Below, piece by piece: positions 725 through 48,042 of a stretch of DNA of 50,048 bases. Numbering within the stretch: the stretch's first letter is position 1; the number at the start of each line of letters is the position of its first letter. Location: positions 1-50,048 of the forward strand of contig CAMTWD010000009.1 in assembly GCA_947085365.1 (NCBI GenBank), given 5' to 3'. The position numbers and the translations under genes were made by a program. Source of the stretch: an uncultured Nitrospirota bacterium. GTDB lineage: Bacteria > Nitrospirota > Thermodesulfovibrionia > Thermodesulfovibrionales > CALJEL01. The notes below the pieces were generated by a model. The model did no database searches, was not told the origin of the DNA, and was given only the letters and a program-made list of their open reading frames with translations.

Positions 725-2346
725 CAAAGGTTAAGGCCCTTATATTCTTCAGAATAGGTTTTACAATACTTCTTCTGGGCTCTTTCCTTCTTTTAAAGCT
801 ACACCCATCGCCCCTGCCCTACCATCATATGATAAAATATCTGGTTCTTAGCATATTTATCCTCAGTTTTATTTATCTCCTGATCCTCCCATATATTAAA
901 AACCTCAAGGCCTTTGCCTATCTCCAGCTCATCATCGACTCCCTCTTCATAATAGCCCTTATATTCATGACAGGGGGAGTGGAGAGCTGGTTTACCTTTC
1001 TCATGATTCTGAATGTTATAGCTGGTAGTATCGTGATAGGAAGGACTGGAGGGTTTATCATCGCCACAATCCTCAGCCTTTTATACGGCCTTCTGATAGA
1101 CCTTCAATTTTACAAAGTGATCCCCCTTGCCTTTGATCCATCTTTAAAAGTCTATCATTTTCTCTATAACATCTTTATCCATATATCAAGTCTCTATCTT
1201 GTAGCGTATCTTTCAGGTTATCTAACGAGCAGGCTTCAGATGACCTACCAAAGACTAAAAAGCACAGAGCATGATCTTTCAGAGCTCAGGGCATTGAATA
1301 CCATTATTGTGGAGAATGTCCCCAGTGGCATCGTTACAACCAATGGTGAGGGGAAGATAATCGCCTTTAATAGTTGCGCAGAGCTGATTACAGAGATACC
1401 CAGGAAAGAGGCAATAGGGAAGTCTATCTACGATATCTTTCCTTTTCTGAGAAATTCCCTTGAGACCCCTGAGCTTCGTATCAGGACCGAGGGGAGTATA
1501 AGGGTAAAGGGTGGTGAGAAGTTCATAGGAATAACCATTAATAAACTCAGACATCACGATACCTCCCGTAGTGGCGGAGTAACTGTTGGATTGATTGGAG
1601 TCTTTCAGGACCTTACAGAGATCAAAAAAGCAGAGGAGGATGCAAAGAGGAGGGAGAAGCTTGCTGCCATAGGTGAGCTTTCCCGCAATATTGCCCATGA
1701 GATAAGAAACCCCTTAGCATCTCTGAAGGGTTCTATTGAGATCCTTATGGAAGACAGGATATCCCCTGAACAGAAAAAGAGGCTTATGGAGATTGCCCTC
1801 AAGGAGATGGAGAGACTCAATAAGATAATAACAGACTTTCTCATTTATGCGAAACCATCTCCTCTGCGCATTAAGAATTTCAATCTGATAGATCTTATTG
1901 ATGAGGTAATATTCATCCTCCGGAGCTCACCAAAGGCTGAGGGAGTAATGATTGAACGAGACCTTTCACCTGAACTTAGTGGCGAACTGACAGGTGAAGG
2001 GATGCTGATATCAGGAGATGAGGCACAGCTCAAACAGGTATTCTTAAATCTTGGTTATAATGCCCTTGAGGCCTTAGAGAACCAGCCATTCGCAAAGAGA
2101 CTCAATATATCCATCCAGAGGGAGGGAGAATTTGTTACCGTATCCTTTAAGGATTCAGGTCCAGGAATAAGGGAAGAAGACATTGATAAGATCTTCTATC
2201 CCTTTTACTCCACAAAAGAGGATGGCAGCGGACTCGGCCTCTCCATTGCCTATAAGATCATAGAGGAACATCATGGTAAAATATCAGTAAGGAGTTCTCC
2301 AGAAGGGACTGTATTTGATGTAATGATACCAATGGTGGCGAAGTAA
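721..2346 (+). CDS. Membrane sensor histidine kinase (PilS-like): about 6 TM helices, PAS-like region, HisKA and HATPase_c
   Basis: GTG start overlaps the pilC stop. H-box NIAHEIRNPLASL, N-box LNLGYNALEA, G-boxes DSGPGI and GSGLGLSIA. Sits between pilC and a sigma54 response regulator. The stop codon lies inside a family-A motif copy. Confidence 0.85.
   Translation: MTKVKALIFFRIGFTILLLGSFLLLKLHPSPLPYHHMIKYLVLSIFILSFIYLLILPYIKNLKAFAYLQLIIDSLFIIALIFMTGGVESWFTFLMILNVIAGSIVIGRTGGFIIATILSLLYGLLIDLQFYKVIPLAFDPSLKVYHFLYNIFIHISSLYLVAYLSGYLTSRLQMTYQRLKSTEHDLSELRALNTIIVENVPSGIVTTNGEGKIIAFNSCAELITEIPRKEAIGKSIYDIFPFLRNSLETPELRIRTEGSIRVKGGEKFIGITINKLRHHDTSRSGGVTVGLIGVFQDLTEIKKAEEDAKRREKLAAIGELSRNIAHEIRNPLASLKGSIEILMEDRISPEQKKRLMEIALKEMERLNKIITDFLIYAKPSPLRIKNFNLIDLIDEVIFILRSSPKAEGVMIERDLSPELSGELTGEGMLISGDEAQLKQVFLNLGYNALEALENQPFAKRLNISIQREGEFVTVSFKDSGPGIREEDIDKIFYPFYSTKEDGSGLGLSIAYKIIEEHHGKISVRSSPEGTVFDVMIPMVAK
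1569..1586 (+). repeat. Family-A motif copy (tagtggcggagtaactgt), in frame in the pilS-like gene (SGGVTV)
   Basis: Matches the consensus nRGTGGCGARGTAACAGT with 2-3 substitutions. Confidence 0.6.
1976..1993 (+). repeat. Family-A motif copy, degenerate (ttagtggcgaactgacag), in frame in the pilS-like gene (LSGELTG)
   Basis: TTAGTGGCGA core intact, 3' half diverged. Confidence 0.45.
2332..2346 (+). repeat. Family-A motif copy that provides the pilS-like stop codon (atggtggcgaagTAA)
   Basis: GGTGGCGAAGTAA read as V-A-K-stop. Abuts family-C element copy A. Confidence 0.7.
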
Positions 2347-2516: not shown

Positions 2517-3872
2517 ATGAGTGCAAAGATCCTGATTGCAGAGGATGAAAAGGGGATGAGGGATGTCCTCGAGATATTCCTTCAGGAGGAGGGTTACCAG
2601 ACCTTCTCTGCAAAAGATGGCCTTGAGGCAATGGGGATGCTTGAAAGGGACATCTATGACCTCGTTATTACAGACATAAAGATGCCCGGTGCAGACGGTT
2701 TTGAGGTTCTCAAAAAGATAAAAGAGATCTCTCCCCATACAGTAGTAATAATGATCACTGCCTACGGAACAACAGAGTCTGCCATTGAGGCCATAAGGCT
2801 CGGTGCCTATGATTACATAGAGAAACCCTTCAAGATAGAAGAGATTAGGGTCGTCGTCAAAAGGGCTCTGGAAAGGAGAAGATTTACTTCAAGGCTTTCT
2901 CTCCTTTCTGAGAGGCTTAAACCTCAGCAGTGGTTGTGTGAGATCATTTATACAAGCGAAAAGATGAAGGCATTAATGGATACCCTTCCGAAGATTGCCC
3001 AGACGAGTTCCAATGTCCTTATCACTGGAGAAAGTGGTGTGGGTAAGGAACTCATTGCCAGGACACTCCACAGATTGAGTAACAGGGCAGGGAAGGAGTT
3101 CGTTGCCATCAACTGTGCAGCCTTTCCAGAGGGCCTCTTAGAGAGTGAGCTTTTTGGACACATGAAGGGTGCCTTCACAGATGCCCATTATAACAAACAG
3201 GGACTCTTCGAGATCGCCGATGGAGGAACCATATTCCTCGATGAGGTGGGAGATATGCCCCTGAGCCTTCAGGCAAAGCTTCTCAGGGTGATAGAGAACG
3301 GCACATTCAGAAGGGTTGGAGGAGTCACAGATATAAAGGTGGATGTGAGGATCATTGCTGCTACAAATAAGGATCTTAAAAAGGAGATAGAAGAGGGAAG
3401 ATTCAGGGAGGATCTCTATTACCGATTGAATGTTATACCTGTTCATATTCCACCTCTGAGGGAAAGAAGAGAGGATATACCCCTTCTGGCAGGGCATTTT
3501 ATAAAGAAGTATGCTCCCTCAAAGAGATTGACAGAGGAGGCCCTTGAGGCCCTGAAAGATTATTCCTGGAGGGGGAATGTGAGGGAACTGGAAAATGTCA
3601 TAGAGAGGGTCTGCCTGCTGAGTCAATCTGACGAGATAACTGTAAAGGATCTTCCTCCTGAGATTGTAATGGATGCAAAGAAAAAGACCCTGATTCCTGA
3701 ATTAACTCCAGAGGGCATAAATCTTGACAGGCTTGTAGAGGAGATTGAAAAGGAGTACATAATAAAGGCACTCAAGCTCACAGGTAATACAAAGGTAGAG
3801 GCAGCAAGACTGCTGGGTCTCTCCTTCCGATCCTTCAGGTATAGATTAAAAAAATACAATATAGAGTTATAG
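2517..3872 (+). CDS. Sigma-54-dependent response regulator (PilR/NtrC family)
   Basis: Receiver domain (ILIAEDE, ITDIKMPG). AAA+ sigma54-interaction domain (GESGVGKE, ESELFGHMKGAFTDA). C-terminal Fis-type HTH (KVEAARLLGLSFRSFRYRLKK). ATG at 2517 follows AGGGAG. The ORF-track start at 2490 lies inside a repeat. Confidence 0.9.
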   Translation: MSAKILIAEDEKGMRDVLEIFLQEEGYQTFSAKDGLEAMGMLERDIYDLVITDIKMPGADGFEVLKKIKEISPHTVVIMITAYGTTESAIEAIRLGAYDYIEKPFKIEEIRVVVKRALERRRFTSRLSLLSERLKPQQWLCEIIYTSEKMKALMDTLPKIAQTSSNVLITGESGVGKELIARTLHRLSNRAGKEFVAINCAAFPEGLLESELFGHMKGAFTDAHYNKQGLFEIADGGTIFLDEVGDMPLSLQAKLLRVIENGTFRRVGGVTDIKVDVRIIAATNKDLKKEIEEGRFREDLYYRLNVIPVHIPPLRERREDIPLLAGHFIKKYAPSKRLTEEALEALKDYSWRGNVRELENVIERVCLLSQSDEITVKDLPPEIVMDAKKKTLIPELTPEGINLDRLVEEIEKEYIIKALKLTGNTKVEAARLLGLSFRSFRYRLKKYNIEL

Positions 3873-4655
3873 AATCCTTTCAGGATGGGTATAGATATTA
3901 AATCTATCCCCTCTCATAAATCCTACAACTGTCATGCCAGCCTTTTCGGCGATGTCGAGTGCCCTTGTTGTGGGAGCCGTCCTAGAGACCACAAGGGGTA
4001 TTGACCATCGTGCACACTTACTGATCATCTCAGAAGAGAGTCTTCCACTGGCAAACATTATCTTACCGCCGAGTTTTATATCCTCAAGGACTGCATACCC
4101 GATAACCTTATCTATAGCATTGTGTCTTCCTATATCCTCAGCAAAGGCAATCAATATCCTTCCATCAGAAAGGGCTGCACTGTGGATACAACCTGTGGAT
4201 TTATATAGATCTGACCTCATCTGGAATTCATTGAATAGATTCTTCAATACTTCAGGCCTAACCCTTAAGTCCTTGTATCCTACATCCCTGATCTCCTTTT
4301 TCTCAAAGGTAACCCCTCCTGCACAACCAGAGGTAATTGTTACCTCGCCACCAAGTGCTGTTACCTCGCCACTAAGTTCAGATACCACATCCACCACTAT
4401 CTCCTCTCCGTAAACTATCTCCATCCTCTCAGCACACCAGGAGCCTTTAATAATCTCCTCTGTAAGGAGAAGTCCCACCACGAGCTCCCTCACCATCAGA
4501 GGTGTGCAATAGAGCCTCAATAGATCCCTGCCATTAACCTTTATCCTCAGGGCCTTCTCCACAGCAACAGGGTCTTCCATCTCTTCAAAGATAACATCCT
4601 TCTCCTTCAGTCTTACCCTCTTTACCTTTCTCTTCAATGTAGCATTCATCGCCAA
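3867..4655 (-). CDS. fdhD: Formate dehydrogenase accessory sulfurtransferase FdhD family protein
   Basis: Signature EDIGRHNAIDKVIGY, SGRLSSEMISK, VSRTAPTTRALDIAEKAG, NIYTHPERI. Carries two tandem 21-nt family-A copies in frame (SGEVTALGGEVTI). Confidence 0.85.
   Translation of the reverse strand: MAMNATLKRKVKRVRLKEKDVIFEEMEDPVAVEKALRIKVNGRDLLRLYCTPLMVRELVVGLLLTEEIIKGSWCAERMEIVYGEEIVVDVVSELSGEVTALGGEVTITSGCAGGVTFEKKEIRDVGYKDLRVRPEVLKNLFNEFQMRSDLYKSTGCIHSAALSDGRILIAFAEDIGRHNAIDKVIGYAVLEDIKLGGKIMFASGRLSSEMISKCARWSIPLVVSRTAPTTRALDIAEKAGMTVVGFMRGDRFNIYTHPERIL
4336..4377 (-). repeat. Two tandem 21-nt family-A copies inside fdhD
   Basis: attgttacctcgccaccaagt + gctgttacctcgccactaagt, read on the gene strand as SGEVTALGGEVTI. 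Confidence 0.9.
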
Positions 4656-4663
4656 CTCCTAAT

Positions 4664-5326
4664 TTACTTTCCTATGGGTTTTACAGGACAGTCTTCACAC
4701 AATGGTTTGGGTTTACAGAACTCCTTTCCAAGTCTCACCAGTAGGGCATGGTATTCATTGTATATAGCTGGATCAGGTTCGATGGCATGATGAAAGAGAC
4801 TCTGTATCTCTGAATAATCAGCCTTGCTCTCAATTATTCCATGTCTTATGAGAAATCTCTTTGTGTAGGCGTCAACAACAAAGATCGGTCTGTTGAGGGC
4901 ATAAAGAAGGATGGAGTCTGCTGTTTCTGGTCCTATCCCGTCAACATGGAGGAGTCTGCTTCTGAGATATTGAAGATCGCAGGAATGCATATTCTCCATT
5001 TTACCATCGAATTCCTCAATAAGAAATTTTATAAAGGACTTGAGTCTCTCTGCCTTTATATTGAAATACCCAGCAGGCCTGATGAGCCTTGCAAGGCTAT
5101 CCTTATCGAGGTGGTATAATCTCTCGGGTGAAAGGAGCCCCCTCTCTTTTAGATTATTTATTGCCTTCTCCACATTCTTCCAGTTTGTATTCTGGGTCAG
5201 TATTGCCCCCACTGCAACCTCAAAGGGGGATTCGGCAGGCCACCAGTGCTGTGGTCCAAAGGTGGTATAGAGCCTAACGAATACACTTCTTAAAAATCTC
5301 TTTGTAGTTCTATTGTCTTTTGGCAT
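4664..5326 (-). CDS. Endonuclease III-related HhH-GPD base-excision repair protein
   Basis: HhH-GPD features (ILTQNTNW, GIGPETADSILLYAL) and a C-terminal Cys cluster CKPKPLCEDCPV. The ATG at 5326 is preferred. The ORF track extends to a TTG at 5362, which would overlap the serS start. Confidence 0.75.
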   Translation of the reverse strand: MPKDNRTTKRFLRSVFVRLYTTFGPQHWWPAESPFEVAVGAILTQNTNWKNVEKAINNLKERGLLSPERLYHLDKDSLARLIRPAGYFNIKAERLKSFIKFLIEEFDGKMENMHSCDLQYLRSRLLHVDGIGPETADSILLYALNRPIFVVDAYTKRFLIRHGIIESKADYSEIQSLFHHAIEPDPAIYNEYHALLVRLGKEFCKPKPLCEDCPVKPIGK

Positions 5327-5343
5327 ATATTTTGTTATTTTAA

Positions 5344-6696
<1,353 letters not shown>

Positions 6697-12925: not shown

Positions 12926-14358
12926 TTAAAGGTGTTTTCCGTGCTATAAGGACTGAGCCTGATCCCAAGCTGCTTTAACTTTCTATAAAGGGCTGTTCTT
13001 TCAAGACCTATTGCCTCAGCCGTTTTTGAGATATTCCAGTTGTTTTCCTGGAGCCTTTTGATAATAAAGTCCCTTTCAAGGGCATCTCTGGCCTCTTTAA
13101 GGGTCTTAAATTCAAGATAGGATTGATGTTGGTGGCGAAAGTAACAGTTGAAGAGACTCGATTCCTGGCATAGTGGCGAGGTAACAGTTGGTGGTGAGGT
13201 AACAGTAAAGAGACCTGTTTTGAGGTCAGAGGCTGTAATCACCCCCTTTTGGCACATTATTACAAGCCTCTCTACAAGATTCCTCAATTCCCTTACATTT
13301 CCAGGCCAGTCGTAGGTGGATAAAGACTTAAGGGCATCCTCTGATATAGCCTTTGGGGTCTTTCCATATTCAGCAGCTATAAGCTCAAGGAAGTGCCTTA
13401 CAAGTAAAGGTATATCCTCCTTCCTTTCCCTGAGTGGAGGGACCCTCAGTGGTATGACATTTAGTCTATAGAATAGATCCTCCCTAAAGTTTCCCTTTCT
13501 CACCTCCTCTTGGAGGTCTTTATTCGTAGCAGCTATAATCCTTACATCCACCTTTATATTCTTGCTTCCACCAACCCTCTGAAACTCCCTTGTCTCTATG
13601 GCCCTCAGAACCTTTGCCTGGGCATCCATGGACATATCACCAACCTCATCAAGGAAGAGTGTTCCTCCATCAGCAAGTTCAAATTTCCCCTTTTTCCTCT
13701 CGACGGCTCCAGTAAAGGCCCCTTTTTCGTGGCCAAACAATTCACTCTCTATAAGCTCCTTTGGAATGGCAGCACAGTTGACCTCCACAAAGGGCCCACT
13801 CCGTCTTGGACTCCTTTCATGGATCAGCCTTGCCACGAGCTCCTTTCCTGAGCCACTTTCACCAGTTATGAGGACTATACTGTTGGATGAAGCCACAAGG
13901 TCTATCTTGGACCTGAGCTCTCTTATAGCTGGAGATTCTCCAATGAGTTTATACCTCTTTGTGGCATCCTCTTTAAGGGACTTAAGGGCCCCTTCAAGAT
14001 TTGCCATCTCAATTGCCCTTTTGACAGTTATTAAGACCCTTTCAAGAGATAGGGGCTTTTCAAGAAAGTCGTAGGCACCCAGTTTTGATGCCTTTACTGC
14101 CAGCTCTATTGTTCCGTGGCCTGATATCATGATCACCGGGACCTCCGGCCTTCTATCCCTCATTATCCTCAGTGCCTCTATCCCATCCATCTTTGGAAGC
14201 CATATATCAAGAAGCACAAGGTCAGCAGAATCAAGGTGTTCTAAACCTTCTTCAGCATCCTCTGCTGTTATTACCTCGTATCCTTCGTCCTCAAGGATTC
14301 CCTTGAGGCTCTCCCTTATACCCTCCTCGTCATCTATAACAAGTATGAGATAAGACAT
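12919..14358 (-). CDS. Sigma-54-dependent response regulator (NtrX/AtoC type)
   Basis: Receiver (ILVIDDEEG, LLDIWLPKMDG), AAA+ domain (GESGSGKE, ESELFGHEKGAFTGA) and C-terminal HTH (ISKTAEAIGLERTALYRKLK). Three family-A copies sit in the AAA+/HTH linker. Confidence 0.9.
   Translation of the reverse strand: MSYLILVIDDEEGIRESLKGILEDEGYEVITAEDAEEGLEHLDSADLVLLDIWLPKMDGIEALRIMRDRRPEVPVIMISGHGTIELAVKASKLGAYDFLEKPLSLERVLITVKRAIEMANLEGALKSLKEDATKRYKLIGESPAIRELRSKIDLVASSNSIVLITGESGSGKELVARLIHERSPRRSGPFVEVNCAAIPKELIESELFGHEKGAFTGAVERKKGKFELADGGTLFLDEVGDMSMDAQAKVLRAIETREFQRVGGSKNIKVDVRIIAATNKDLQEEVRKGNFREDLFYRLNVIPLRVPPLRERKEDIPLLVRHFLELIAAEYGKTPKAISEDALKSLSTYDWPGNVRELRNLVERLVIMCQKGVITASDLKTGLFTVTSPPTVTSPLCQESSLFNCYFRHQHQSYLEFKTLKEARDALERDFIIKRLQENNWNISKTAEAIGLERTALYRKLKQLGIRLSPYSTENTFNP
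13129..13206 (+). repeat. Three family-A copies (antisense to the gene) in the linker of the NtrX-like regulator
   Basis: ttggtggcgaaagtaacagt ... atagtggcgaggtaacagt tggtggtgaggtaacagt. The gene strand reads TVTSPPTVTSPL...CYFRHQ. Confidence 0.9.
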
Positions 14359-14382: not shown

Positions 14383-16548
14383 TTACCTTTCTGGCAACTC
14401 AATAACAAATATGGCCCCTCTGGGGGTGTTATCCTTTACCTTTATAAAACCCCTGTGCTCTGTTACAATCCTCTGGGCAATGGCAAGACCCAGCCCAGAA
14501 CCACCTTTTTTTGTTGTGAAATGGGGCATGAATAACTTATCTTTTATTTCGTCAGGTATACCCGGACCATCATCAGCTATAGAGACGATTATCTTTTCGC
14601 CATTAAGTTGGGAGAGGGATATGTATATATTTCCTCTGGCCTCATTGCTGTGGGTGGCGAAAGTAACAGTTTCGGTGGCGAAGGTGATTGCCTCAATAGA
14701 ATTATCCATAATATTTATGAAAACCCTCTTGATCTGCTCAGGGTCCACCTCTGCCACCACCGCCTCGTCAGGAAGACTGAGATGAATGTTTATCTCTTTG
14801 AAACCCATGTAAAGATTATATACATCCCTAAGGATATCCCGCATATCCACAGGCCTCTTTTTTATCTGGGGCATCCTGCCAAATTGCGAAAAGTCCGAAA
14901 CGAGTCTTCTTAAACTCTCCACCTCTTTTATTATTGTTTTAGTGGAACTTTCAAAGACCTCATCAAAATCACTTTCTTTATTCTGCCATTTCTTTATAAG
15001 CCTCTCTGTAGAGAGTTTTATAGGGGTAAGGGGATTTTTCACCTCGTGGGCAATCCTTGAGGCAATCTCCTGCCATGCCATTGCCCTCTGGGCATTCACG
15101 AGGTCAGTAATATCATCAAAGACTACCAGCAATCCAATAATAGAGGAACCAGTTTCCTCCCTCCTCAAGGCTGTTATAAACACCCTGAGTATAAGAGATC
15201 TCTCTTTAATATTAATCCTTATCTCTTTCTCAATCCCTCTCAATTCCTTAATCCTTATCCCTTTTATAAGGTTTTCCAGTTCTTCAGATCCAATCGATTC
15301 AAGAAGTTCCCTGTAGGATCTACCCACAAACCCTGCGGCATCTACAGAAAGGATCCTTTCTGCAGCCCTATTCATGGAGAGGATCGTGCCTGAGCCATCA
15401 ATAAAGAGTACGCCTGTATTGATGTTCTCAAGGATACTTGAGAGTCTTATCCTCTGTGCCTCGGCCTCCATATAGGATTCCTGCAGGCGCTTCTTGCCTT
15501 CTCTTAATTGGCCAACCATCGTATTAAAATTCTCGATAAGATAACCAATCTCATCATTCCTGTTCTCCTCAGGAATTATCCTTACATCAAGGTTTCCTGA
15601 GGCTACCTTCATTGTTGCCTCTGTCAATTCCCTCACCGGTTCTGTAATCTTCTTTGAAATCCTCAGGGCTGCCCAGAGTGCAAGCATTATAATAAGGAGG
15701 GTAAAAAAGCCAAAGGTCATAACAAAATTTACTCTAAGAGGGAATTTCCACTTAAGTTTTAAGGAAAGCTCTTCATAATCCTTTTTGAGATTTTCAACTA
15801 TTAGTGGAATATCCTCTTGAACCTTTAAAGAACCCTTGAGAATATATACAGGGCCATCACTATTTGGTGGCGAATGTAACAGTTGAGGATTCTTAACCCT
15901 TACGGCAGCCCTTATATATTCTCCCTCTGGAGACTTAAATACATCTGATGCCTCACCCTTTAAGAAGGCCTCCTTTGTAAGTTCATCTGTATTGGTGGCG
16001 GATGAAGCAGTTGTGAGATCAAGGATTTCCCATTTGATATCTTCTTTACCCTCCTCACCTGTTACTTCTGCCACTGACATGATACCCTTAGAAGTAGAAA
16101 GGTATCGAGCCCTCCTTTTTGCCTCAGAAAGGAGATACTCCTTCTTCTCTTCATAATATATCTTTGCCAGCCTTAAGGTATTCTCAAGGGAGCTCAGGCT
16201 TTGAGGTGTTAGCCATTTTTCAATATAACCTGTTACAAGGCCACTTCCCAGGGCAAAGAGAAATATACTTGGTAAAAGGATAAGGATCAGAAAGATACTG
16301 ACAAGCTGTATCCTGAACTTATGACCTGGTACATTCCTTTTTCTATCAATAAAAAGCCTCAGGATATTCTTACCCACATAAAATAGGAGGATCAGAAGGG
16401 CAAGGAGATTGAGATTTATTCCTAAGAGAAAGAGCATTGCATAAAGGGGTTCATTACCGAGTTTAATGAATCTCGTAAAAAGAAATATATTGACCCCCAC
16501 AAATATGGCAAGAAGAGGCAGTATCAGTAGAAGTTTATAGAACCTCAT
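14383..16548 (-). CDS. NtrY-like membrane sensor histidine kinase (HAMP-PAS-HisKA-HATPase)
   Basis: N-terminal TM helices, HAMP-like segment, PAS, H-box RIAHEVKNPLTPI, N-box NIMDNSIEA, G-boxes DDGPGIP and GGSGLGLAIA. Contains four motif-derived inserts. Confidence 0.9.
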   Translation of the reverse strand: MRFYKLLLILPLLAIFVGVNIFLFTRFIKLGNEPLYAMLFLLGINLNLLALLILLFYVGKNILRLFIDRKRNVPGHKFRIQLVSIFLILILLPSIFLFALGSGLVTGYIEKWLTPQSLSSLENTLRLAKIYYEEKKEYLLSEAKRRARYLSTSKGIMSVAEVTGEEGKEDIKWEILDLTTASSATNTDELTKEAFLKGEASDVFKSPEGEYIRAAVRVKNPQLLHSPPNSDGPVYILKGSLKVQEDIPLIVENLKKDYEELSLKLKWKFPLRVNFVMTFGFFTLLIIMLALWAALRISKKITEPVRELTEATMKVASGNLDVRIIPEENRNDEIGYLIENFNTMVGQLREGKKRLQESYMEAEAQRIRLSSILENINTGVLFIDGSGTILSMNRAAERILSVDAAGFVGRSYRELLESIGSEELENLIKGIRIKELRGIEKEIRINIKERSLILRVFITALRREETGSSIIGLLVVFDDITDLVNAQRAMAWQEIASRIAHEVKNPLTPIKLSTERLIKKWQNKESDFDEVFESSTKTIIKEVESLRRLVSDFSQFGRMPQIKKRPVDMRDILRDVYNLYMGFKEINIHLSLPDEAVVAEVDPEQIKRVFINIMDNSIEAITFATETVTFATHSNEARGNIYISLSQLNGEKIIVSIADDGPGIPDEIKDKLFMPHFTTKKGGSGLGLAIAQRIVTEHRGFIKVKDNTPRGAIFVIELPER
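14650..14690 (+). repeat. Two family-A copies inside the HATPase domain of the NtrY-like kinase
   Basis: gtgggtggcgaaagtaacagt ttcggtggcgaaggtgattg. The gene strand reads ITFATETVTFATH, directly after the N-box. Confidence 0.8.
15863..15883 (+). repeat. Family-A copy in the NtrY-like sensor region
   Basis: tttggtggcgaatgtaacagt. Confidence 0.75.
15991..16011 (+). repeat. Family-A copy, degenerate, in the NtrY-like sensor region
   Basis: attggtggcggatgaagcagt. Confidence 0.5.
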
Positions 16549-16563: not shown

Positions 16564-17202
16564 TCATTCTCCGCCTATTCTGAATACAGGGGACTCCCTC
16601 GATACAGAAAACTCCTTTTCAGGGACAAAAAACAGAAGATACCCCACCACAGGAGGAAGCCTCCTGAGCCTTGACTCCACAGTGACTTTTATATAATAAT
16701 CCCCTGGGGCAAGCCCCTTGATATTTAAGAGGGGGAGGGACTTTATCTCCCTCATCTCCTTTAGCATGGATTCAAAACTCTTATACCTTTTTTCAATAAT
16801 ACGCCTTCTGTTTCTATCGTAGGAATGGAGGATGTATTCACCTTTAATAACATCTCCTACTATCTTTCTTTCAATAGAATTTCCAAATACATACTCATCA
16901 GCCCAATTCCTCCAGACCTTGAAGAGGTCTATATAAAAGATGAGCTCCTTCTGAACACCGTTCTTTGCTTCCTTGACGAAAGACTCATCAAGGATTACAG
17001 AGGTAGAAACAACAAGTTCATCGCCATTAATCCTCACATCAAGAGAACCTATCTCTGCAGCAAGACCTGATCCTGTCATGTATAGAATAAAAAGGCCTGA
17101 AAGGAGTAAAATAATAGGAAGGCTCAGACTGTTACCTCGCCACTGGGCGAGGTAGAGTGGGCCTCTCTTAGGGGATTTTCCTATGCAGATGAGGAAGACC
17201 AT
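16564..17202 (-). CDS. DUF4390-like exported protein encoded upstream of the NtrY-like kinase
   Basis: N-terminal signal/TM segment, position immediately upstream of the ntrY-like gene, and size typical of DUF4390. The exact start is uncertain because the 5' region is built from motif copies. Confidence 0.5.
   Translation of the reverse strand: MVFLICIGKSPKRGPLYLAQWRGNSLSLPIILLLSGLFILYMTGSGLAAEIGSLDVRINGDELVVSTSVILDESFVKEAKNGVQKELIFYIDLFKVWRNWADEYVFGNSIERKIVGDVIKGEYILHSYDRNRRRIIEKRYKSFESMLKEMREIKSLPLLNIKGLAPGDYYIKVTVESRLRRLPPVVGYLLFFVPEKEFSVSRESPVFRIGGE
17127..17160. repeat. Inverted (REPIN-like) pair of family-A copies in the 5' part of the DUF4390-like ORF
   Basis: gactgttacctcgccactg overlapping ctgggcgaggtagagt. 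Confidence 0.8.
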
Positions 17203-17257: not shown

Positions 17258-17743
17258 ATGGAACTTAAAACAGTCAAGATAGGTATTCCCGAGGGCTGTA
17301 ACATAATCCTCGGACAGACCCACTTTATTAAGACCGCTGAAGATCTTTATGAAGTGATTGCCACCACAGTACCGGGAGCCGAATTTGGTATAGCCTTCAC
17401 AGAGGCCTCAGGCCCCTGTCTTATAAGAACAGAGGGCAATAATGATGAGCTTATAAATGCCTGTGTGAAGATTCTTCAGGATATAGGGGCTGGTCATATA
17501 TTTTGTATCCTTTTGAGAAGGGCCTATCCAATAAATATCCTGAATCAGATAAAGGCCTGTCCGGAGGTCTGCAGGATATTCTGTGCCACTGCCAATCCCC
17601 TTGAGGTTATCGTCTGTGAGACCTCCCAGGGTAGGGGTATAATAGGTGTTATTGATGGCTTTCCACCAAAGGGAGTTGAAGGCCCTGAGGATAAGAGAAA
17701 GAGAAGGGAATTCCTAAGGAAGATAGGATATAAATTAGGCTGA
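17258..17743 (+). CDS. Adenosine-specific kinase family protein (PF04008-like)
   Basis: Family-like N-terminus (MELKTVKIGIPEGCNIILGQTHFIKT) and size. The SD is provided by GGCGAGGAGG. The TGA stop lies inside a family-C hairpin element. Confidence 0.6.
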   Translation: MELKTVKIGIPEGCNIILGQTHFIKTAEDLYEVIATTVPGAEFGIAFTEASGPCLIRTEGNNDELINACVKILQDIGAGHIFCILLRRAYPINILNQIKACPEVCRIFCATANPLEVIVCETSQGRGIIGVIDGFPPKGVEGPEDKRKRREFLRKIGYKLG

Positions 17744-17818
17744 AGGCTTAAGGCTGAAGAAAAAAGACAAAAATTATTTTTAAACTTCAGCCTATCGCCT
17801 TCAGCCTTAAGCCTAATT
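17732..17818. repeat. Family-C hairpin element, copy B, about 87 bp
   Basis: AAATTAGGCTGAAGGCTTAAGGCTGAAG - A/T loop - CTTCAGCCTATCGCCTTCAGCCTTAAGCCTAATT. Contains the TGA stop of the upstream gene. No family-A flanks. Confidence 0.8.
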
Positions 17819-17837
17819 ATTGAGGGAGGATAACCAG

Positions 17838-18242: not shown

Positions 18243-18273
18243 TTTGTGGCGGAGTAAGTTGGTGGCGAGGTAA
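18243..18273 (+). repeat. Two family-A copies downstream of yjbQ
   Basis: tttgtggcggagtaag ttggtggcgaggtaa. Confidence 0.75.
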
Positions 18274-18366
18274 ATGAGGTTGAAGGCAGTAGGCTGAAGA
18301 AAAAAACAATAATCCTGTCTTTGTCTCTTTTCTTCAGCCTTCAGCCTAAAGCCTTAAGCCTAATTT
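18272..18366. repeat. Family-C hairpin element, copy C, about 95 bp
   Basis: AAATGAGGTTGAAGGCAGTAGGCTGAAG - loop - CTTCAGCCTTCAGCCTAAAGCCTTAAGCCTAATTT. Bracketed by GGTGGCGAGGTAA and AGTGGCGAGGTAA. Confidence 0.85.
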
Positions 18367-18401
18367 AGTGGCGAGGTAACAGTGGGTGGCAAAGTAACAG
18401 T
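18364..18401 (+). repeat. Two tandem family-A copies. The second provides the GTG start of the 285-aa ORF.
   Basis: tttagtggcgaggtaacagt gggtggcaaagtaacagt. Confidence 0.9.
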
Positions 18402-22224: not shown

Positions 22225-25200
22225 ATGCGAAGCCATTCTGAGTATGTTCCCCTACACCTACACACAGAATACAGCCTTCTTGATGGAGCAATAAAGATAG
22301 ATGAACTTGTGAAGGTGGCTTCAGAATTCCGCCTTCCCGCCCTTGCCATTACAGATCATGGAAATATCTTTGGTGCTATAGAGTTTTATGAGAAGGTATC
22401 AAAGGCTGGCATTAAACCCATCATAGGAGCCGAGGTATATGTTGCACCTGAGAGTAGATTTAAAAAACATACTGAGAGAGGAAGCACAAAAGATTCCAAC
22501 TGTTACCTCGCCACTAAGTGTGGTGAGAATGCCTATCATCTGATTCTTCTTGCAAAGGACATCTCAGGATACAAAAATCTCATGAGGCTTCTGACCCTTG
22601 CCCATCTTGAGGGCTTTTACTATAAGCCCAGGATAGACAACGACCTTTTGGAACAATATTCCGGAGGGCTCATAGCCCTCTCTTCCTGTATGAAGGGAGA
22701 GATACCCCTTCTTTTATTGAAAGGCGATATAGATGGAGCTCGCAGAAGGGCCCTTTATTATAAAAATCTCTTTGGACCTGAAAATTTTTACATTGAGCTT
22801 CAGGCAAATGGTATTCCAGAACAGGAGGAGCTCAACAAGAGGCTCGCCCTACTGGCGGAGGAGATTCATGTGGGTGTAGTGGCAACCAATGATTGCCATT
22901 ATCTGAGAAGAGAAGATGCAAAGGCTCACGAGATATTGCTCTGCATCCAGACAAATAAGACCATTAATGACACCGACAGGATGAGATTCCCGACAGATGA
23001 GTTTTATTTTAAGTCTCCTGATGAGATGATGGCGGAGTTTAGCTCAGTTCCAGAGGCAATAAGGAATACAGTTCGGATAGCCGAGAGGTGCAATCTTACC
23101 CTCGAACTCGGCAAACCCCTTCTGCCTGAATTCAGCACACCTGATGGAAGTCCCCCCGAGGTCTTTCTTGAAAGGATTTCGATAGAGGGGCTCAAGAGGA
23201 GGTTCAGGGATAAGGAGATACCCGAGAATTATCGCAAGAGGCTTCATGGGGAGCTCCAGATGATAAAGAAGATGGGATATTCCTCTTATTTTCTTATAGT
23301 ATGGGATTTCATAAGATTTGCTAAGGAGAGGGATATACCAGTGGGGCCTGGAAGGGGTTCTGCTGCAGGAAGCCTTGTGGCATGGGCACTGGGCATTACA
23401 GAGATTGACCCTATAAGGTATTCCCTCCTTTTTGAGAGATTTCTCAATCCTGAGCGGGTAAGTATGCCTGACATAGATGTGGATTTCTGCAGGGACAGGC
23501 GTGAGGAAGTAATAAGATATGTCCAGGAGAAATACGGTGTAGATCAGGTGGCACAGATAATTACCTTTGGGACCATGGCATCAAGGGCTGCTGTAAGGGA
23601 TACAGGAAGGGTGCTCGGTATGCCCTATCAGGAGGTGGACAGGATTGCAAAGCTTATTCCAGTGAGTGCTACTAAGGAGATAAATCTGAAGACCGCCCTT
23701 GAGCTTTCACCTCCACTTAAAGAATCCTATGAAAAAGACCCCAAGGTGAAAGGGCTTATTGATATAGCCATGAAGCTTGAAGGTCTCAAGAGGCATGCCT
23801 CAGTGCATGCTGCTGGTGTGGTAATAGCACCTGAGCCACTTACGGAATATACTGCCCTTTACAAGGGTTCTAAAGGCGACGAGACGATAACGACACAGTT
23901 TGACCTTGAGGCCCTTGAGAAGGTGGGGCTTATAAAATTTGATTTCTTAGGGCTTGATACCCTCACTATAATCGATAGGACAGTGAAATATATAAAAGAA
24001 AAAGAGAGGGATTTTGATCTGAACCAGATCCCCCTTGACGATAAAGAGACATACAGGTTGCTCTCTGAGGGAAGGACTGCAGGCATCTTTCAGCTTGAGG
24101 GTTCTGGGATGAGGGAGCTTCTTATGAAGTTGCAACCTGATAGATTTGATGACCTTATTGCCCTTGTGGCACTTTACAGACCTGGCCCCTTAGGAAGTGG
24201 GATGGTTGATGATTTTATAAAAAGAAAGAAAGGCCTTGTCCCTGTAGAATACGACCTGCCAGAACTTAAGGATATCCTTGATGAGACCTATGGTGTGATT
24301 CTCTATCAGGAACAGGTAATGAGGATCTCCAATGTTATTGCAGGATTCTCCATGGGTCAGGCTGATCTCCTCCGGAGGGCTATCTCAAAGAAGGATCCTA
24401 TTCTTATGGAGGAGATGAAGGAGAAGTTTATTAGGGGTGCCTTGGAGCGTGGCTATTCAGAGGAGGTTGCCAGTAGGCTTTTCGGGCTGATTGAATATTT
24501 TGGTAATTACGGATTCAATAAATCCCATTCAGCTGCCTATGCCCTTCTTGCCTATCAGACCGCCTATCTTAAGACGCACTATCCTGTGGAGTTTATGGCT
24601 GCCTCTCTTAGTGCAGAGGTTAACAAGACTGAAAAGATCATAAGGCTTATAAATGAATGCGATGCGATGGGAGTAAGGATATTACCTCCTGATATTAATA
24701 AGAGTAGCGCTGAATTTACTATTGAAGATGGTGCGATAAGATTTGGCTTAAAGGCAGTAAAGGGTGTGGGTGTAGGGGCAATTTCCGCCATCACAGAGGA
24801 AAGGGATAAGAGGCCTTTTGAGTCCTTAGAGGATTTTTTAAAAAGGATGGTGGATGATCCTACCAATTGTTCCCTCACCACCGATAGTGGCGAAGTAACA
24901 GGGGGTCTCACAGGGGGGAACGAATGTTCCCCCCTGTGTACCCCCGAAGTAACAGGGAGAAGGCGCCTCAGCAAAAAGGTTATTGAGGCACTTATAAAGG
25001 CTGGCGCCTTTGATTCCTTCGGGATTTCGAGGCAGGAGGCCCTCCAGATCCTTGAATCGCCCAGAAGCAGAAAGAGCAGGATACAGCCGAGCATGTTTGA
25101 TGCGGTTGAGGAGGGGTCAGAAAATAAAAAGGATTTCTCACTGGTACCTTCGCCACCAATCGGATTCAGCCCTGATACCCTACAACTTGAAAAGAAATTT

Positions 25201-26046
25201 GAATGGAATCAGGCTATAAATCTTGCCTATGAAAAGGAGGCACTCGGTTTTTATATCTCTGGTCATCCCCTTCAGCCCTTCAGAGAGATCCTCAGGATAT
25301 TTGGTGTAAAGGAGATAGAGGAGTTAAAGACAAAGGTGATGGGGATAGAGAGTGTTACTTCGCCCCTGTCGGTGGTGAAGGTAACAGATGAGGAAGGGCA
25401 ATATAACGAGGATCTCCTCGGATGGCAAAGTAATGGGGAAGAGGGTTTAGGTATTGATAGATCTTCAACTGTTACCTCGCCACCAAGCACTGTTTGCTTC
25501 ATTGCAGGTCTGGTACTGGATATAAAAAGACACAGGACAAGGGAAAGGAATGAACTTATGGCCTTCGTGACACTGGAGGATGAATTTGGTACTGTTGAGA
25601 TGGTGGTCTTCCCAGAGCTTTACAAGGCTTCTATGAGCATACTTGAAAAGGGCTCCCTCGTTGTTATAAGGGGTAAGGCGGACCTTTCAGAAAAGGGCCT
25701 GAAGATCATAGCAGAAGAGCTCTGGGACTTGGAGACCTTTATAAGGAATGGTCTTAATAGGTGCTCGAGATTGAATATCCACCTCGAACTCTTTAAGACC
25801 AGAAAAGAAGACCTCATGAGGCTGATAGAGATAATTAGAGAAGACTCGAGTGGTGAAGCAACAGTTGTAGGGGTAAACGGTGGTGAAGGTAACAGTTACG
25901 GAGAGGGTCTCCCCCTCTATATCGAACTTCTCATGCCTGATTGCACCGTGAGTATTCAGAGTAGATTCAGGGTGAATCCTGATTTTAGGGTTATAAAAAG
26001 GATTCAGGAATTACTGGGTAGAAACAGTGTGGAGGTGATCTGTTGA
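22225..26046 (+). CDS. dnaE: DNA polymerase III alpha subunit
   Basis: PHP domain ([18 protein letters not shown]), polymerase core ([37 protein letters not shown]) and OB-fold region. At 1273 aa it is about 100 aa longer than typical DnaE because of repeat-derived inserts. Confidence 0.97.
22497..22519 (-). repeat. Family-A copy in the dnaE PHP-domain region (NCYLATK)
   Basis: caactgttacctcgccactaagt. Confidence 0.9.
24865..24955. repeat. Composite in dnaE: reverse family-A copy, forward family-A copy, family-B G-rich palindrome (inverted orientation), family-A half copy
   Basis: caattgttccctcaccaccgat agtggcgaagtaaca GGGGGTCTCACAGGGGGGAACgaatGTTCCCCCCTGTGTACCCCCG aagtaacag. Translated as [31 protein letters not shown]. 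Confidence 0.9.
25141..25160 (-). repeat. Family-A copy in dnaE (LVPSPPI)
   Basis: ctggtaccttcgccaccaat. Confidence 0.6.
25351..25387. repeat. Inverted pair of family-A copies in dnaE ([12 protein letters not shown])
   Basis: agtgttacttcgcccctg tcggtggtgaaggtaacag. Confidence 0.7.
25466..25487 (-). repeat. Family-A copy in dnaE (STVTSPPS)
   Basis: caactgttacctcgccaccaag. Confidence 0.9.
25847..25896 (+). repeat. Two family-A copies in the dnaE C-terminal region (SSGEATV...GGEGNS)
   Basis: cgagtggtgaagcaacagt ... acggtggtgaaggtaacagt. Confidence 0.7.
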
Positions 26047-29410: not shown

Positions 29411-29414
29411 TTAG

Positions 29415-29434
29415 TTTAGTGGCGAGGTAACAGT
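29415..29434 (+). repeat. Family-A copy between ORF100 and aprB
   Basis: tttagtggcgaggtaacagt. Confidence 0.9.
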
Positions 29435-29435
29435 T

Positions 29436-29453
29436 GGCCTCGTTGAGGCCTTT
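29436..29453 (+). terminator. Short hairpin plus T-run between the sat-ORF100 unit and aprB (possible attenuator)
   Basis: GGCCTC-gtt-GAGGCC followed by TTT. Lies immediately after a family-A motif copy. Confidence 0.3.
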
Positions 29454-40244: not shown

Positions 40245-40342
40245 CTTACTGGTGAAGTAACAGTTACTCAGTCGCGAGGTAACAGTCGGGGGTACACAGG
40301 GGGAAACAAAGTTCCCCCCTGTGAGACCCCCGAGGTAACAGT
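40245..40342 (+). repeat. Composite repeat (two family-A copies, family-B G-rich palindrome, family-A half copy), intergenic copy
   Basis: cttactggtgaagtaacagt tactcagtcgcgaggtaacagt CGGGGGTACACAGGGGGAAACaaaGTTCCCCCCTGTGAGACCCCCG aggtaacagt. Confidence 0.9.
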
Positions 40343-40372
40343 CGGTTTAATAGGCGTGGTAAAGAGTGATGC

Positions 40373-41089
40373 CTAAGGAATTTGTGAGGTAGTATTGATG
40401 AGTTCTACAACATATCTGAAGAAGTTGAACGATAGGTCATCGGGCATATCAATTATTGAAGCACCGCAGATATAGTTTTGGTCTTTTTTTATGCAGTAGG
40501 CAATCCTTACCTTTATAACGGTTTGATTGCCTGCCCTTCTTGACGAAAGTCTGATATTGTAAAGACTGCCCGGTTGAAGGGCTTGATCTGTAATGAATTG
40601 GAGACCATGCTGGCTGAGATTTGTAATATGACCATTTAATATCCTCCCTTCAGCATCAATAATGAGTTCGATGTATCTTTGAAGGATTTCTGGAAGGGGA
40701 TAGCGGATTTCCTTTCTCTTTTCCTGGTATTGAGTTAGTGGAGAAGTAACAGTACTTAGTGGCGAGGTAACAGTCGGGGGTACACAGGGGGGAACATTCG
40801 TTCCCCCCTGTGAGACCCCCGAGGTAACAGTTGGTTTGAAGGAGAGTCTGAGGTCATGGGCTATCTGGATATATTTTATCCAGTTCATGATTTCATAAAG
40901 ACCCCTCACTGCTTCTTTGATTCTGATGGCGAGTTCTGGGTTCTCTGTTTCTCTCAGTATCTGCTGGAGGATTTCCGATGCGCCAAATGTCTTATTTATC
41001 AAAAGGTCAGAGAGGCATTCTATCTGTTTTTTATTATTTATAAAACAGCCCTCCATCCCCCCACATATGCGGTTACATCTTTCAAGCAC
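40373..41089 (-). CDS. PilZ-domain protein with a helical N-terminal region
   Basis: The C-terminal half has PilZ-like RxxxR and D/NxSxxG elements (RKEIRYPL, ITNLSQHGLQF). A 33-aa linker is encoded entirely by a composite repeat. GTG start overlaps the upstream stop, and the start is uncertain. Confidence 0.6.
   Translation of the reverse strand: MLERCNRICGGMEGCFINNKKQIECLSDLLINKTFGASEILQQILRETENPELAIRIKEAVRGLYEIMNWIKYIQIAHDLRLSFKPTVTSGVSQGGTNVPPCVPPTVTSPLSTVTSPLTQYQEKRKEIRYPLPEILQRYIELIIDAEGRILNGHITNLSQHGLQFITDQALQPGSLYNIRLSSRRAGNQTVIKVRIAYCIKKDQNYICGASIIDMPDDLSFNFFRYVVELINTTSQIP
40735..40831 (+). repeat. Composite repeat (same architecture as 40245-40342), in frame inside the PilZ-protein ORF
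   Basis: ttagtggagaagtaacagt acttagtggcgaggtaacagt CGGGGGTACACAGGGGGGAACattcGTTCCCCCCTGTGAGACCCCCG aggtaacagt. Confidence 0.9.
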
Positions 41090-43900: not shown

Positions 43901-43920
43901 TTTAGTGGCGAGACAGTAGT
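43901..43920 (+). repeat. Family-A copy with an internal deletion, followed by a stub of the family-B palindrome
   Basis: tttagtggcgagacagtagt followed by cgggggta. Confidence 0.65.
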
Positions 43921-43941
43921 CGGGGGTATAAAGGAAGAGAG

Positions 43942-45301: not shown

Positions 45302-48042
<2,741 letters not shown>

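Follow-up and report, generated by a model that had tools for sequence, protein, structure and literature searches.

The dnaE gene and its repeat-derived segments

The stretch of DNA analysed here, which we refer to as the window, comprises positions 1 to 50,048 (50,048 nucleotides, nt) of contig CAMTWD010000009.1 from an uncultured, sulfate-reducing Nitrospirota bacterium of the order Thermodesulfovibrionales (assembly GCA_947085365.1). An open reading frame (ORF) on the plus strand at 22225-26046, uninterrupted over 3.8 kb, is the gene dnaE and encodes a DNA polymerase III (Pol III) alpha subunit of 1273 amino acids (aa). According to the original prediction, this gene carries repeat-derived segments in frame at six or more places, most of them in the C-terminal third around the OB-fold and tau-binding region. 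Both statements were borne out: 6/6 sites hold copies of a short repeat unit and most are located in the part of the protein with the clamp-binding, OB-fold and tau-binding regions (Table 1). Together the six sites contain 8-9 units, not six, and one nested hairpin element.

All five Pfam domains of Pol III alpha were found in the window protein, namely PF02811, PF07733, PF17657, PF14579 and PF01336 (PHP, DNA_pol3_alpha, finger, HHH_6 and OB), and the domain order of PHP, palm/thumb/fingers, (HhH)2, OB fold and C-terminal domain matches that of Pol III alpha. In the PDB, the best matches were the Pol III alpha subunits of Taq (E = 1e-275) and of E. coli (E = 3e-245). The catalytic motifs PDIDVDF (aa 415-421) and FDFLGL (aa 572-577) fall in invariant columns of the protein alignment described below, in which the catalytic aspartates D416, D418 and D573 are invariant in 19/19 sequences, as are the PHP metal ligands H11, H13, D20, H45, E70, H105, C155, D223 and H225. 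The internal beta-clamp-binding motif QPSMF, which we take to correspond to the clamp-binding motif QADMF of E. coli, is kept between sites 2 and 3, and F958 of the pattern Q-x-x-M/L-F is invariant in the alignment.

All inserts in dnaE keep the reading frame, and the chance that at least six independent insertion sites would all be in frame without selection is (1/3)^6, or about 0.0014. Because at least six independent events are all in frame and the active-site residues are invariant, we judge dnaE to be an intact, functional gene. The window was also compared with ten orthologous loci from related genomes (including L009, L010, L011, L013, L014, L016, L017, L018 and L019), and the gene order dnaE-accA-adk-sat-DUF6955-aprBA-qmoABC is conserved among them.

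The window probably derives from a metagenome assembly and dnaE is known here from sequence alone, and it could therefore be argued that we are dealing with a pseudogene, or with an artefact of assembly in which the repeat similarity comes from chimeric or misassembled reads. We find this hardly credible. Besides the uninterrupted ORF, the preserved frame and the invariant catalytic residues, sequencing reads exceed the repeats in length, independent assemblies from JGI and Logan/SRA show the same phenomenon, and the synteny of the locus is conserved.

A short repeat unit dispersed across the window

Aligning all copies gave the unit consensus TT[A/G]GTGGCGA[G/A]GTAACAGT, with a length of 18-21 nt. 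Its 16-mer core, CTGTTACCTCGCCACC, has 33 matches in the window at up to 3 mismatches compared with 0.15 expected, and 0/100 shuffled windows reached this number. A regular expression admitting 15- and 16-nt variants found 39 copies, 8 of them in dnaE; across both types of search the chance expectation for the window was 0.15-0.4. The unit density is 0.78 per kb, with a strand split of 13 versus 26. The copies are much denser outside ORFs, where 17/39 of them lie in roughly 5% of the window (6.6 per kb versus 0.46 per kb in ORFs); the other 22/39 are inside ORFs. From the density in the other ORFs only 1.2 copies would be expected in dnaE (Poisson P = 4e-5, or about 2e-3 once corrected for picking the richest of roughly 45 genes), and across 24865-25896 of dnaE the density of 7 per kb is the same as in intergenic DNA. 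An excess of copies in dnaE is also present in the related loci L009 and L010.

Neighbouring units form 16 tandem pairs (18-21 nt from start to start), 4 convergent pairs and 3 divergent pairs. A model in which the units arise by the healing of breaks was rejected on these counts, since it predicts convergent inverted pairs only and tandem pairs dominate. Taken singly, the unit is neither a palindrome nor bounded by inverted ends, and it folds at 0 to -1.3 kcal/mol, which is not better than shuffled sequences. Inverted unit pairs and the G-rich element described below fold strongly. At site 1 of dnaE, the single unit has a partial inverted partner, GTGGTGAG, at 22521-22528, and the resulting hairpin folds at -6.5 kcal/mol.

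The unit can be translated in most frames: 5/6 are open in the forms flanked by TCGG or TTGG, and 3/6 in the form flanked by TTAG, which is dominant in the window. Copies are read in five of the frames, giving GEVT, TVTSP, NCYLAT, VKVT and WRGNS. Selection at the peptide level for motifs such as GEVT or TVTSP was considered and rejected, given that five frames of one DNA sequence are used and that this sequence is most frequent outside coding DNA.

Copies in the other host genes of the window (Table 1) lie nearly all between Pfam domains or at protein termini. The sigma-54 activator has three units in the linker ahead of its HTH, the HAMP/PAS kinase has two units, and the gene of a PilZ protein also hosts a unit. 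In L009, the host genes besides dnaE are those of TolA, TolB, Pal, MltG and one hypothetical protein with five copies. The HhH-GPD glycosylase gene at 4664-5362, the sole other repair gene in the window, is without a unit copy.

An Rfam search of the whole window gave no match, and thus the units do not appear to be part of a described RNA family. An intein or intron was likewise rejected as the source of the inserts, which are 7-35 aa long compared with at least about 130 aa for a mini-intein; besides the empty Rfam search, the protein gave only the five Pol III alpha Pfam domains and no intein or intron motifs. When viral and metagenome contigs were scanned with exact 16- and 17-mers, each scan returned 71 single-match loci, which is the chance level, and neither a repeat-rich contig nor a candidate mobilising gene. 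A search of the published literature for the sequence of the unit found none, and a literature search on Thermodesulfovibrio repeats found nothing relevant.

Table 1. Repeat copies and associated features of the window. Positions are nucleotides of the window unless given as aa.
Feature	Position	Strand	Description
Site 1 (dnaE)	22497-22519; unit 22500-22514	+	One unit, CTGTTACCTCGCCACT strand coding; peptide NCYLATK (aa 92-98)
Site 2 (dnaE)	24865-24955		Composite: inverted unit pair, G-rich palindrome, repeated half unit
Site 2a	24865-24901; units 24867-24881 and 24887-24901		Convergent inverted pair: TTGTTCCCTCACCACC, spacer GAT, AGTGGCGAAGTAACAG
Site 2b	24902-24945		G-rich palindromic hairpin nested within the second unit
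Site 2c	24946-24955	+	Repeated half unit GAAGTAACAG, duplicate of 24892-24901
Clamp-binding motif (dnaE)	25084-25098 (aa 954-958)	+	QPSMF
Site 3 (dnaE)	25141-25160; unit 25141-25156	+	One unit, 17-nt variant with one change (CTGGTACCTTCGCCACC); peptide LVPSPPI
Site 4 (dnaE)	25351-25387; units 25352-25366 and 25372-25387		Convergent inverted pair
Site 5 (dnaE)	25466-25487; unit 25469-25483	+	One perfect unit (0 mismatches); peptide STVTSPPS
Site 6 (dnaE)	25847-25896; units 25850-25864 and 25880-25895	-	Tandem pair, 30 nt start to start, GGTGGTGAAG..AACAG strand coding
Insert blocks of DnaE	aa 85-96, 876-910, 977-985, 1042-1089, 1218-1222		Gaps in 7/7 outgroup proteins
Full copies of the G-rich element (n = 3)	24902-24945, 40261-40348, 40749-40837		Each nested in a unit copy
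Partial fourth copy of the G-rich element	43902-43934		Adjoins a degenerate unit
Reference composite outside dnaE	40749-40837	+	Unit, G-rich palindrome, repeated half unit
Intergenic filled site	29411-29436		TTAGTTTAGTGGCGAGGTAACAGTT (~20-nt unit), minus strand, between the DUF6955 gene and aprB
In-frame units in other genes	1571-1585, 4337-4372, 5570-5584, 13132-13205, 14654-14669, 15867-15882, 17129-17143		PilS-like histidine kinase, FdhD (a tandem pair within the domain), SerRS (N-terminal arm), sigma-54 activator, HAMP/PAS kinase, DUF4390

Comparison with homologous DnaE proteins

The window DnaE was aligned with the 11 homologues closest to it (67-69% identical, 1186-1262 aa) and with an outgroup of seven more distant DnaE proteins from Nitrospirota/Thermodesulfovibrionales (about 52-60% identical, 1133-1151 aa). 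A scan of genome contigs with a DnaE peptide pattern returned only DnaE of 37-42% identity from other phyla. In the window protein, five blocks with a total of 109 aa face gaps in every outgroup sequence (Table 1). One of these, which contains site 2, is missing from every relative; site 1 lies in the first block, and site 5 in the one located just before OB-fold strand 1. Taq Pol III alpha also aligns only to aa 339-879, 915-1035 and 1090-1173, leaving out aa 880-914 and 1036-1089. It had been proposed that the segments are true inserts and not ordinary protein sequence conserved across the lineage, and the alignment agrees with this, as the relatives differ at the sites.

The six segments sum to 243 nt, or 81 aa, and the excess of the window protein over the short DnaE class is 122-140 aa. 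Recognisable repeat DNA accounts for about 60-75% of this excess length, and the remainder is older insert sequence, for example the pre-OB EEG..E..DL stretch common to the group of P0003, P0005, P0010 and P0012. The expectation that the extra length roughly equals the sum of the inserts was consequently correct only as an approximation, with 81 aa of repeat against 109-140 aa.

Location of the inserts in the predicted structure

Two AlphaFold2 models were made, one of aa 800-1273 (mean pLDDT 76) and one of aa 1-330 (mean pLDDT 86.7). The C-terminal model matches the Taq and E. coli Pol III alpha structures 4iqj, 2hpi and 5fku. Its segments with pLDDT below 50 are aa 881-909, 964-990, 1044-1055, 1058-1083 and 1211-1224, and these are insert sites 2-6; site 3 is in the linker of aa 964-990, the segment of site 4 is aa 1044-1055, and that of site 6 is aa 1211-1224, which in the C-terminal, tau-binding domain separates a helix from a strand. 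In the N-terminal model, pLDDT drops below 50 only at aa 83-100; this segment is site 1, between strands 64-74 and 104-110 of the PHP barrel. The helices and strands flanking the insert sites have pLDDT above 90. Between them, the models thus put every insert in a predicted loop of low confidence. The predicted placement of the inserts between folded elements is firm, and the loops that they form may well be disordered.

Filled and empty sites in related genomes

The clearest example of an insertion comes from the dnaE genes of L010, L018, L019 and L014, which are 88-91% identical in DNA. L010 alone of these four has the sequence TCGGTGGCGAAAGTAACAGTT between TTAAAA and ACAGAGG. It is exactly 21 nt long, encodes SVAKVTV and is not accompanied by a target duplication, and the other three genes provide its empty counterparts. 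In the window itself, the spacer between the DUF6955 gene and aprB is filled by an intergenic unit, whereas the same spacer in L011, L016, L013, L014, L017 and L018 consists of only about 5 nt (CAAAA), beside a conserved hairpin. This hairpin, GGCCTCnTTGAGGCC at 29437-29451 of the window, is kept in 10/10 related loci and may be a terminator, an attenuator or a processing site upstream of the APS reductase genes.

Two of the related loci are themselves rich in units, L009 with 20 copies in 23.8 kb (7 in dnaE) and L010 with 4 copies in 5.6 kb (3 in dnaE), and both have their own variant of the unit, GGCGAAAGTAACAG. Their dnaE copies occupy the same loops as those of the window, yet differ from them in position, orientation and frame. 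An example is site 1, where the window encodes NCYLAT on one strand and L009 encodes GGESNS on the other. These differences mark the dnaE insertions in the window, L009 and L010 as independent events. Signs of recent movement were found as well, in that the L010 copies are identical over 21-23 nt among themselves and to an intergenic copy, and the dnaE palindrome of the window is 47/47 identical to its partner copy.

Older copies could also be recognised. For the pre-OB unit at window position 25352, L009 has a copy at the same place and in the same orientation and frame, and in L011 and L016 the copy is decayed (tcaactcttacttctctacag), with the same Glu-Glu codons after it as in the window. 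Decayed pre-OB copies in L011, L016 and L013 compare with 0.1-0.3 expected per gene. This first unit of site 4 appears to be ancestral and shared with the relatives. Repeat-poor genomes, in which the family is absent, have either short DnaE loops (P0002, P0004, P0007 and P0008) or long loops without recognisable repeats (P0003, P0005 and P0010).

It might be suggested that the units are binding sites of a host DNA-binding protein, as in a nucleoid-associated, regulatory or iteron-like array, and that they are selected as such, including the copies within dnaE. Tandem units are spaced by 18-21 nt, close to two turns of the helix, the intergenic enrichment is strong, with copies beside promoter- or terminator-like hairpins, and the core is conserved across diverged genomes. 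However, the intragenic copies follow no positional logic, their orientation is mixed (26 versus 13), copies decay where the family is rare, and most relatives have empty orthologous sites without any apparent effect. We consider a role as binding sites quite improbable.

L014, L018 and L019, relatives without the 18-21-nt unit, have other short tandem repeats in the same DnaE loops. The C-terminal loop of DnaE in L014 has four copies of CCTTCACC at 13371-13418, and the linker past the clamp motif in L019 has CGACCTC-type repeats. L014 also has intergenic octamer arrays (ACTAACTC, ACTAATTC and AGTGCGAC). In L016, about 13 copies of ..GAAGGGATTGCGAC in a flank of the dnaE locus, recognised only from over-represented 11-mers, are a probable CRISPR array.

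A G-rich hairpin element nested in the unit

Site 2 of dnaE contains a second element, a G-rich hairpin of 44-47 nt with arms GGGGGTACACAGGGGGGAAC and GTTCCCCCCTGTGAGACCCCC. Over 47 nt (24901-24947), the palindrome agrees at 100% identity with the sequence at 40774-40820 in reverse complement, and the composite to which the latter sequence belongs is likely to be the source or sister of the dnaE palindrome. The element in dnaE is inverted relative to its host unit when compared with the copies at 40.3 and 40.8 kb. As single-stranded DNA, the dnaE composite folds at -27.2 kcal/mol (z = -6.7).

In dnaE the element is flanked on both sides by the direct repeat GAAGTAACAG, with starts 54 nt (18 codons) apart. 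The copies at 40.3 and 40.8 kb have GAGGTAACAGT in both flanks, with starts 57 and 56 nt apart, so that the flanking repeat varies together with the host unit. This would fit the insertion of a separate tiny hairpin element into the unit with a duplication of 10-11 nt, as judged from the three full copies, and in dnaE the gene would thereby have gained 54 nt. The copies at 40.3 and 40.8 kb bracket the start region of an ORF for a PilZ-domain protein (40373-41089, minus strand).

Comparison with known repeats and uptake sequences

Rickettsia palindromic elements (RPE) are palindromes of about 105-150 bp, usually one per gene, in obligate intracellular alphaproteobacteria, and reviews that summarise Ogata et al. 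(2000) describe them as inserted in frame in many unrelated housekeeping genes, translated, located at positions tolerated by the fold and proposed as a source of new loop sequence (PMC10969869, PMC3184786). The window units are likewise found in frame in unrelated genes at positions tolerated by the fold. They differ in being 18-21 nt long and non-palindromic, with up to 8-9 per gene, and in their host, a free-living member of the Thermodesulfovibrionales (Nitrospirota), and there is no sequence relationship. By analogy, RPE are the closest functional counterpart of the window units.

In size and behaviour, the closest counterpart is the small dispersed repeats (SDR) of Nostocaceae, of which Elhai et al. 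in 2008 reportedly described SDR1-8, with lengths of 21-27 nt, high copy number, presence or absence at orthologous sites, repeats nested in repeats, accompanying arrays of short tandem heptamers, and the mover left open. The window unit is also very small, at or slightly below the SDR range, and of high copy number; it is present or absent at orthologous sites (the 21-nt dnaE site in L010 and the ~20-nt intergenic site), and repeats nested in repeats occur at the three full copies of the G-rich element. Arrays of the heptamer AGGCTGA adjoin window units at 2333-2384 and 18260-18375. However, SDRs are reported only in Nostocaceae and the window belongs to another phylum, so that SDRs are at most an analogue. 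To our knowledge, heavy in-frame colonisation of essential genes is not a dominant feature of SDRs, but it is for the window units. As a separate observation, the heptamer arrays (AGGCTGA and its complement, and CTTAAGC) at 2346-2500, 17720-17830 and 18260-18375 form long inverted repeats around A/T-rich centres; they are intergenic, abut units and resemble cyanobacterial heptamers.

Repetitive extragenic palindromic (REP) sequences and REPINs are abundant, non-autonomous repeats of about 35 nt whose inverted doublets form hairpins, and insertion of the RAYT (Y1/HUH) or IS200/IS605 type proceeds without target-site duplication. The window units are similarly short and abundant, their inverted pairs fold, and they are inserted cleanly without target-site duplication. 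In contrast, REPs are extragenic imperfect palindromes, and the window units are single and unstructured with 22/39 copies in ORFs; no RAYT or Y1 transposase was found within the window. The G-rich hairpin, on the other hand, can be likened to a transposable element of the miniature inverted-repeat type (MITE), as it has two inverted arms and a 10-11-nt flanking direct repeat that co-varies with the host unit, and occurs in both orientations. Examples of MITEs are the Correia element and intragenic ERIC and BOX, and those listed in one review are about 100-440 bp (PMC3184786); the hairpin is far smaller at 44-47 nt, and 3/3 full copies are inside another repeat.

The original prediction had drawn a parallel with uptake sequences enriched in genome-maintenance genes, and the unit could indeed be a DNA uptake or other recognition signal kept by biased uptake and recombination. 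Its density is close to the 0.80 and 0.89 per kb of the uptake signal sequences (USS) of Pasteurellaceae and the DNA uptake sequences (DUS) of Neisseriaceae, which also occur in both orientations and favour tolerated frames and less constrained parts of proteins (PMC2817400). Related genomes hold variants of the unit, comparable to the dialects of DUS (PMC3630211), the unit has frame preferences in coding DNA, and dnaE is the richest gene in three genomes. However, uptake sequences originate through point mutation with homologous recombination rather than through insertion (PMC2817400), whereas whole units of 20-21 nt are inserted here and every dnaE copy is within an insert block. USS and DUS have cores of 9-12 nt and show neither tandem arrays nor nested elements; tandem arrays are the commonest arrangement of the unit, a second element is nested in it, and its conserved core, at 16-18 nt, exceeds every known uptake sequence in length. 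The host genes are mostly unrelated to genome maintenance, being mainly those of kinases, FdhD, SerRS and Tol proteins, with no copy in the HhH-GPD glycosylase gene, and uptake-sequence density itself correlates poorly with functional category (PMC2817400). The proposed parallel did not hold up, and an uptake signal seems to us very unlikely.

Probable colonisation of a working replicase gene

Taken together, these results suggest with good confidence that dnaE is a working replicase gene that has been repeatedly colonised by selfish, very small dispersed repeats, with selection filtering the insertions into permissive loops. Whole units would be copied to new places without target-site duplication. 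Because units are 18 or 21 nt long and most of their frames are open, many insertions would merely add 6-7 residues. Selection would then remove all insertions save those in disordered surface loops and inter-domain linkers, which in DnaE would be the PHP loop, the linker from the HhH region to the clamp motif, the linker from the clamp motif to the OB fold, the pre-OB loop and the loop of the C-terminal domain. The inserts would be translated as passenger loop sequence, most likely without function and hence neutral and selfish, and with time they would decay and leave the lineage with longer loops. In one unit, the second element, the 44-47-nt G-rich hairpin, would have inserted with duplication of about 10 nt of the unit. 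The data show the identity of the repeats, their insertion, the independence of the events, the position in loops and the intactness of the gene, and from these we infer that the inserts are neutral and selfish.

How the units move can be addressed only tentatively. Movement without a DDE transposase, by single-strand or templated copy-in or by short-patch ectopic conversion, is a possibility, and we lean away from a DDE transposase because one clean site is without duplication and the unit is without inverted ends. A more far-reaching proposal would be that in Thermodesulfovibrionales the units form a class of frame-neutral micro-elements, active and so far undescribed. They would be copied in, with no target-site duplication, through a mechanism tied to replication or repair (for example templated addition at single-strand gaps or breaks), and their concentration in dnaE in three genomes would reflect this mechanism or a selected effect on the replicase, not loop permissiveness alone. 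We think this unlikely, but if it were true the clade would be a tractable system for how repeats of less than 30 nt move.

Several points weigh against repeated colonisation by selfish repeats as the full explanation. A hairpin of -27 kcal/mol within a coding region could have effects. Relative to other ORFs, dnaE has a real excess of copies (uncorrected P about 4e-5) in three genomes, and loop permissiveness is a plausible rather than a proven cause. The low pLDDT of the inserts is partly expected for lineage-specific sequence, as the alignment is gapped there. The nearest DnaE in the databases is only 67-69% identical to that of the window, and since no close genome is present there the clean filled and empty comparison in dnaE is from the lineage of a relative. 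No Y1/RAYT or DDE transposase was found when the window was searched, and the sole transposon-like ORF in it is TnpB-like and without a link to the repeat.

Selfish DNA in coding genes, known from the 100-150-bp Rickettsia elements, would by this colonisation be extended to units of 18-21 nt in free-living Nitrospirota, and the load is extreme, with 8-9 units and a nested hairpin in an essential replicase. The filled and empty sites, together with repeat-rich and repeat-free sister genomes, offer a way to seek the mover of such tiny repeats. The data also document the lengthening of loops in proteins through repeat insertion followed by decay. For annotation, it should be considered that the inserts inflate protein length and create lineage-specific low-complexity stretches that could be mistaken for functional motifs.

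Other features of the window

A 561-aa ORF at 45302-46987 on the plus strand, between the DUF1015 and GAPDH genes, has a Cas12f1-like TNB domain (PF07282, E = 4e-17) and is a candidate TnpB/Cas12f-like RNA-guided nuclease. It is unusually long for TnpB and is without an adjacent Y1 transposase. This ORF was considered as a mobiliser of the unit and dropped, as no clear unit was found at its borders.

Long inverted repeats at 3109-3499 and 13391-13781, about 72% complementary, are not mobile DNA but the AAA+ cores of paralogous sigma-54 response regulators encoded on opposite strands.

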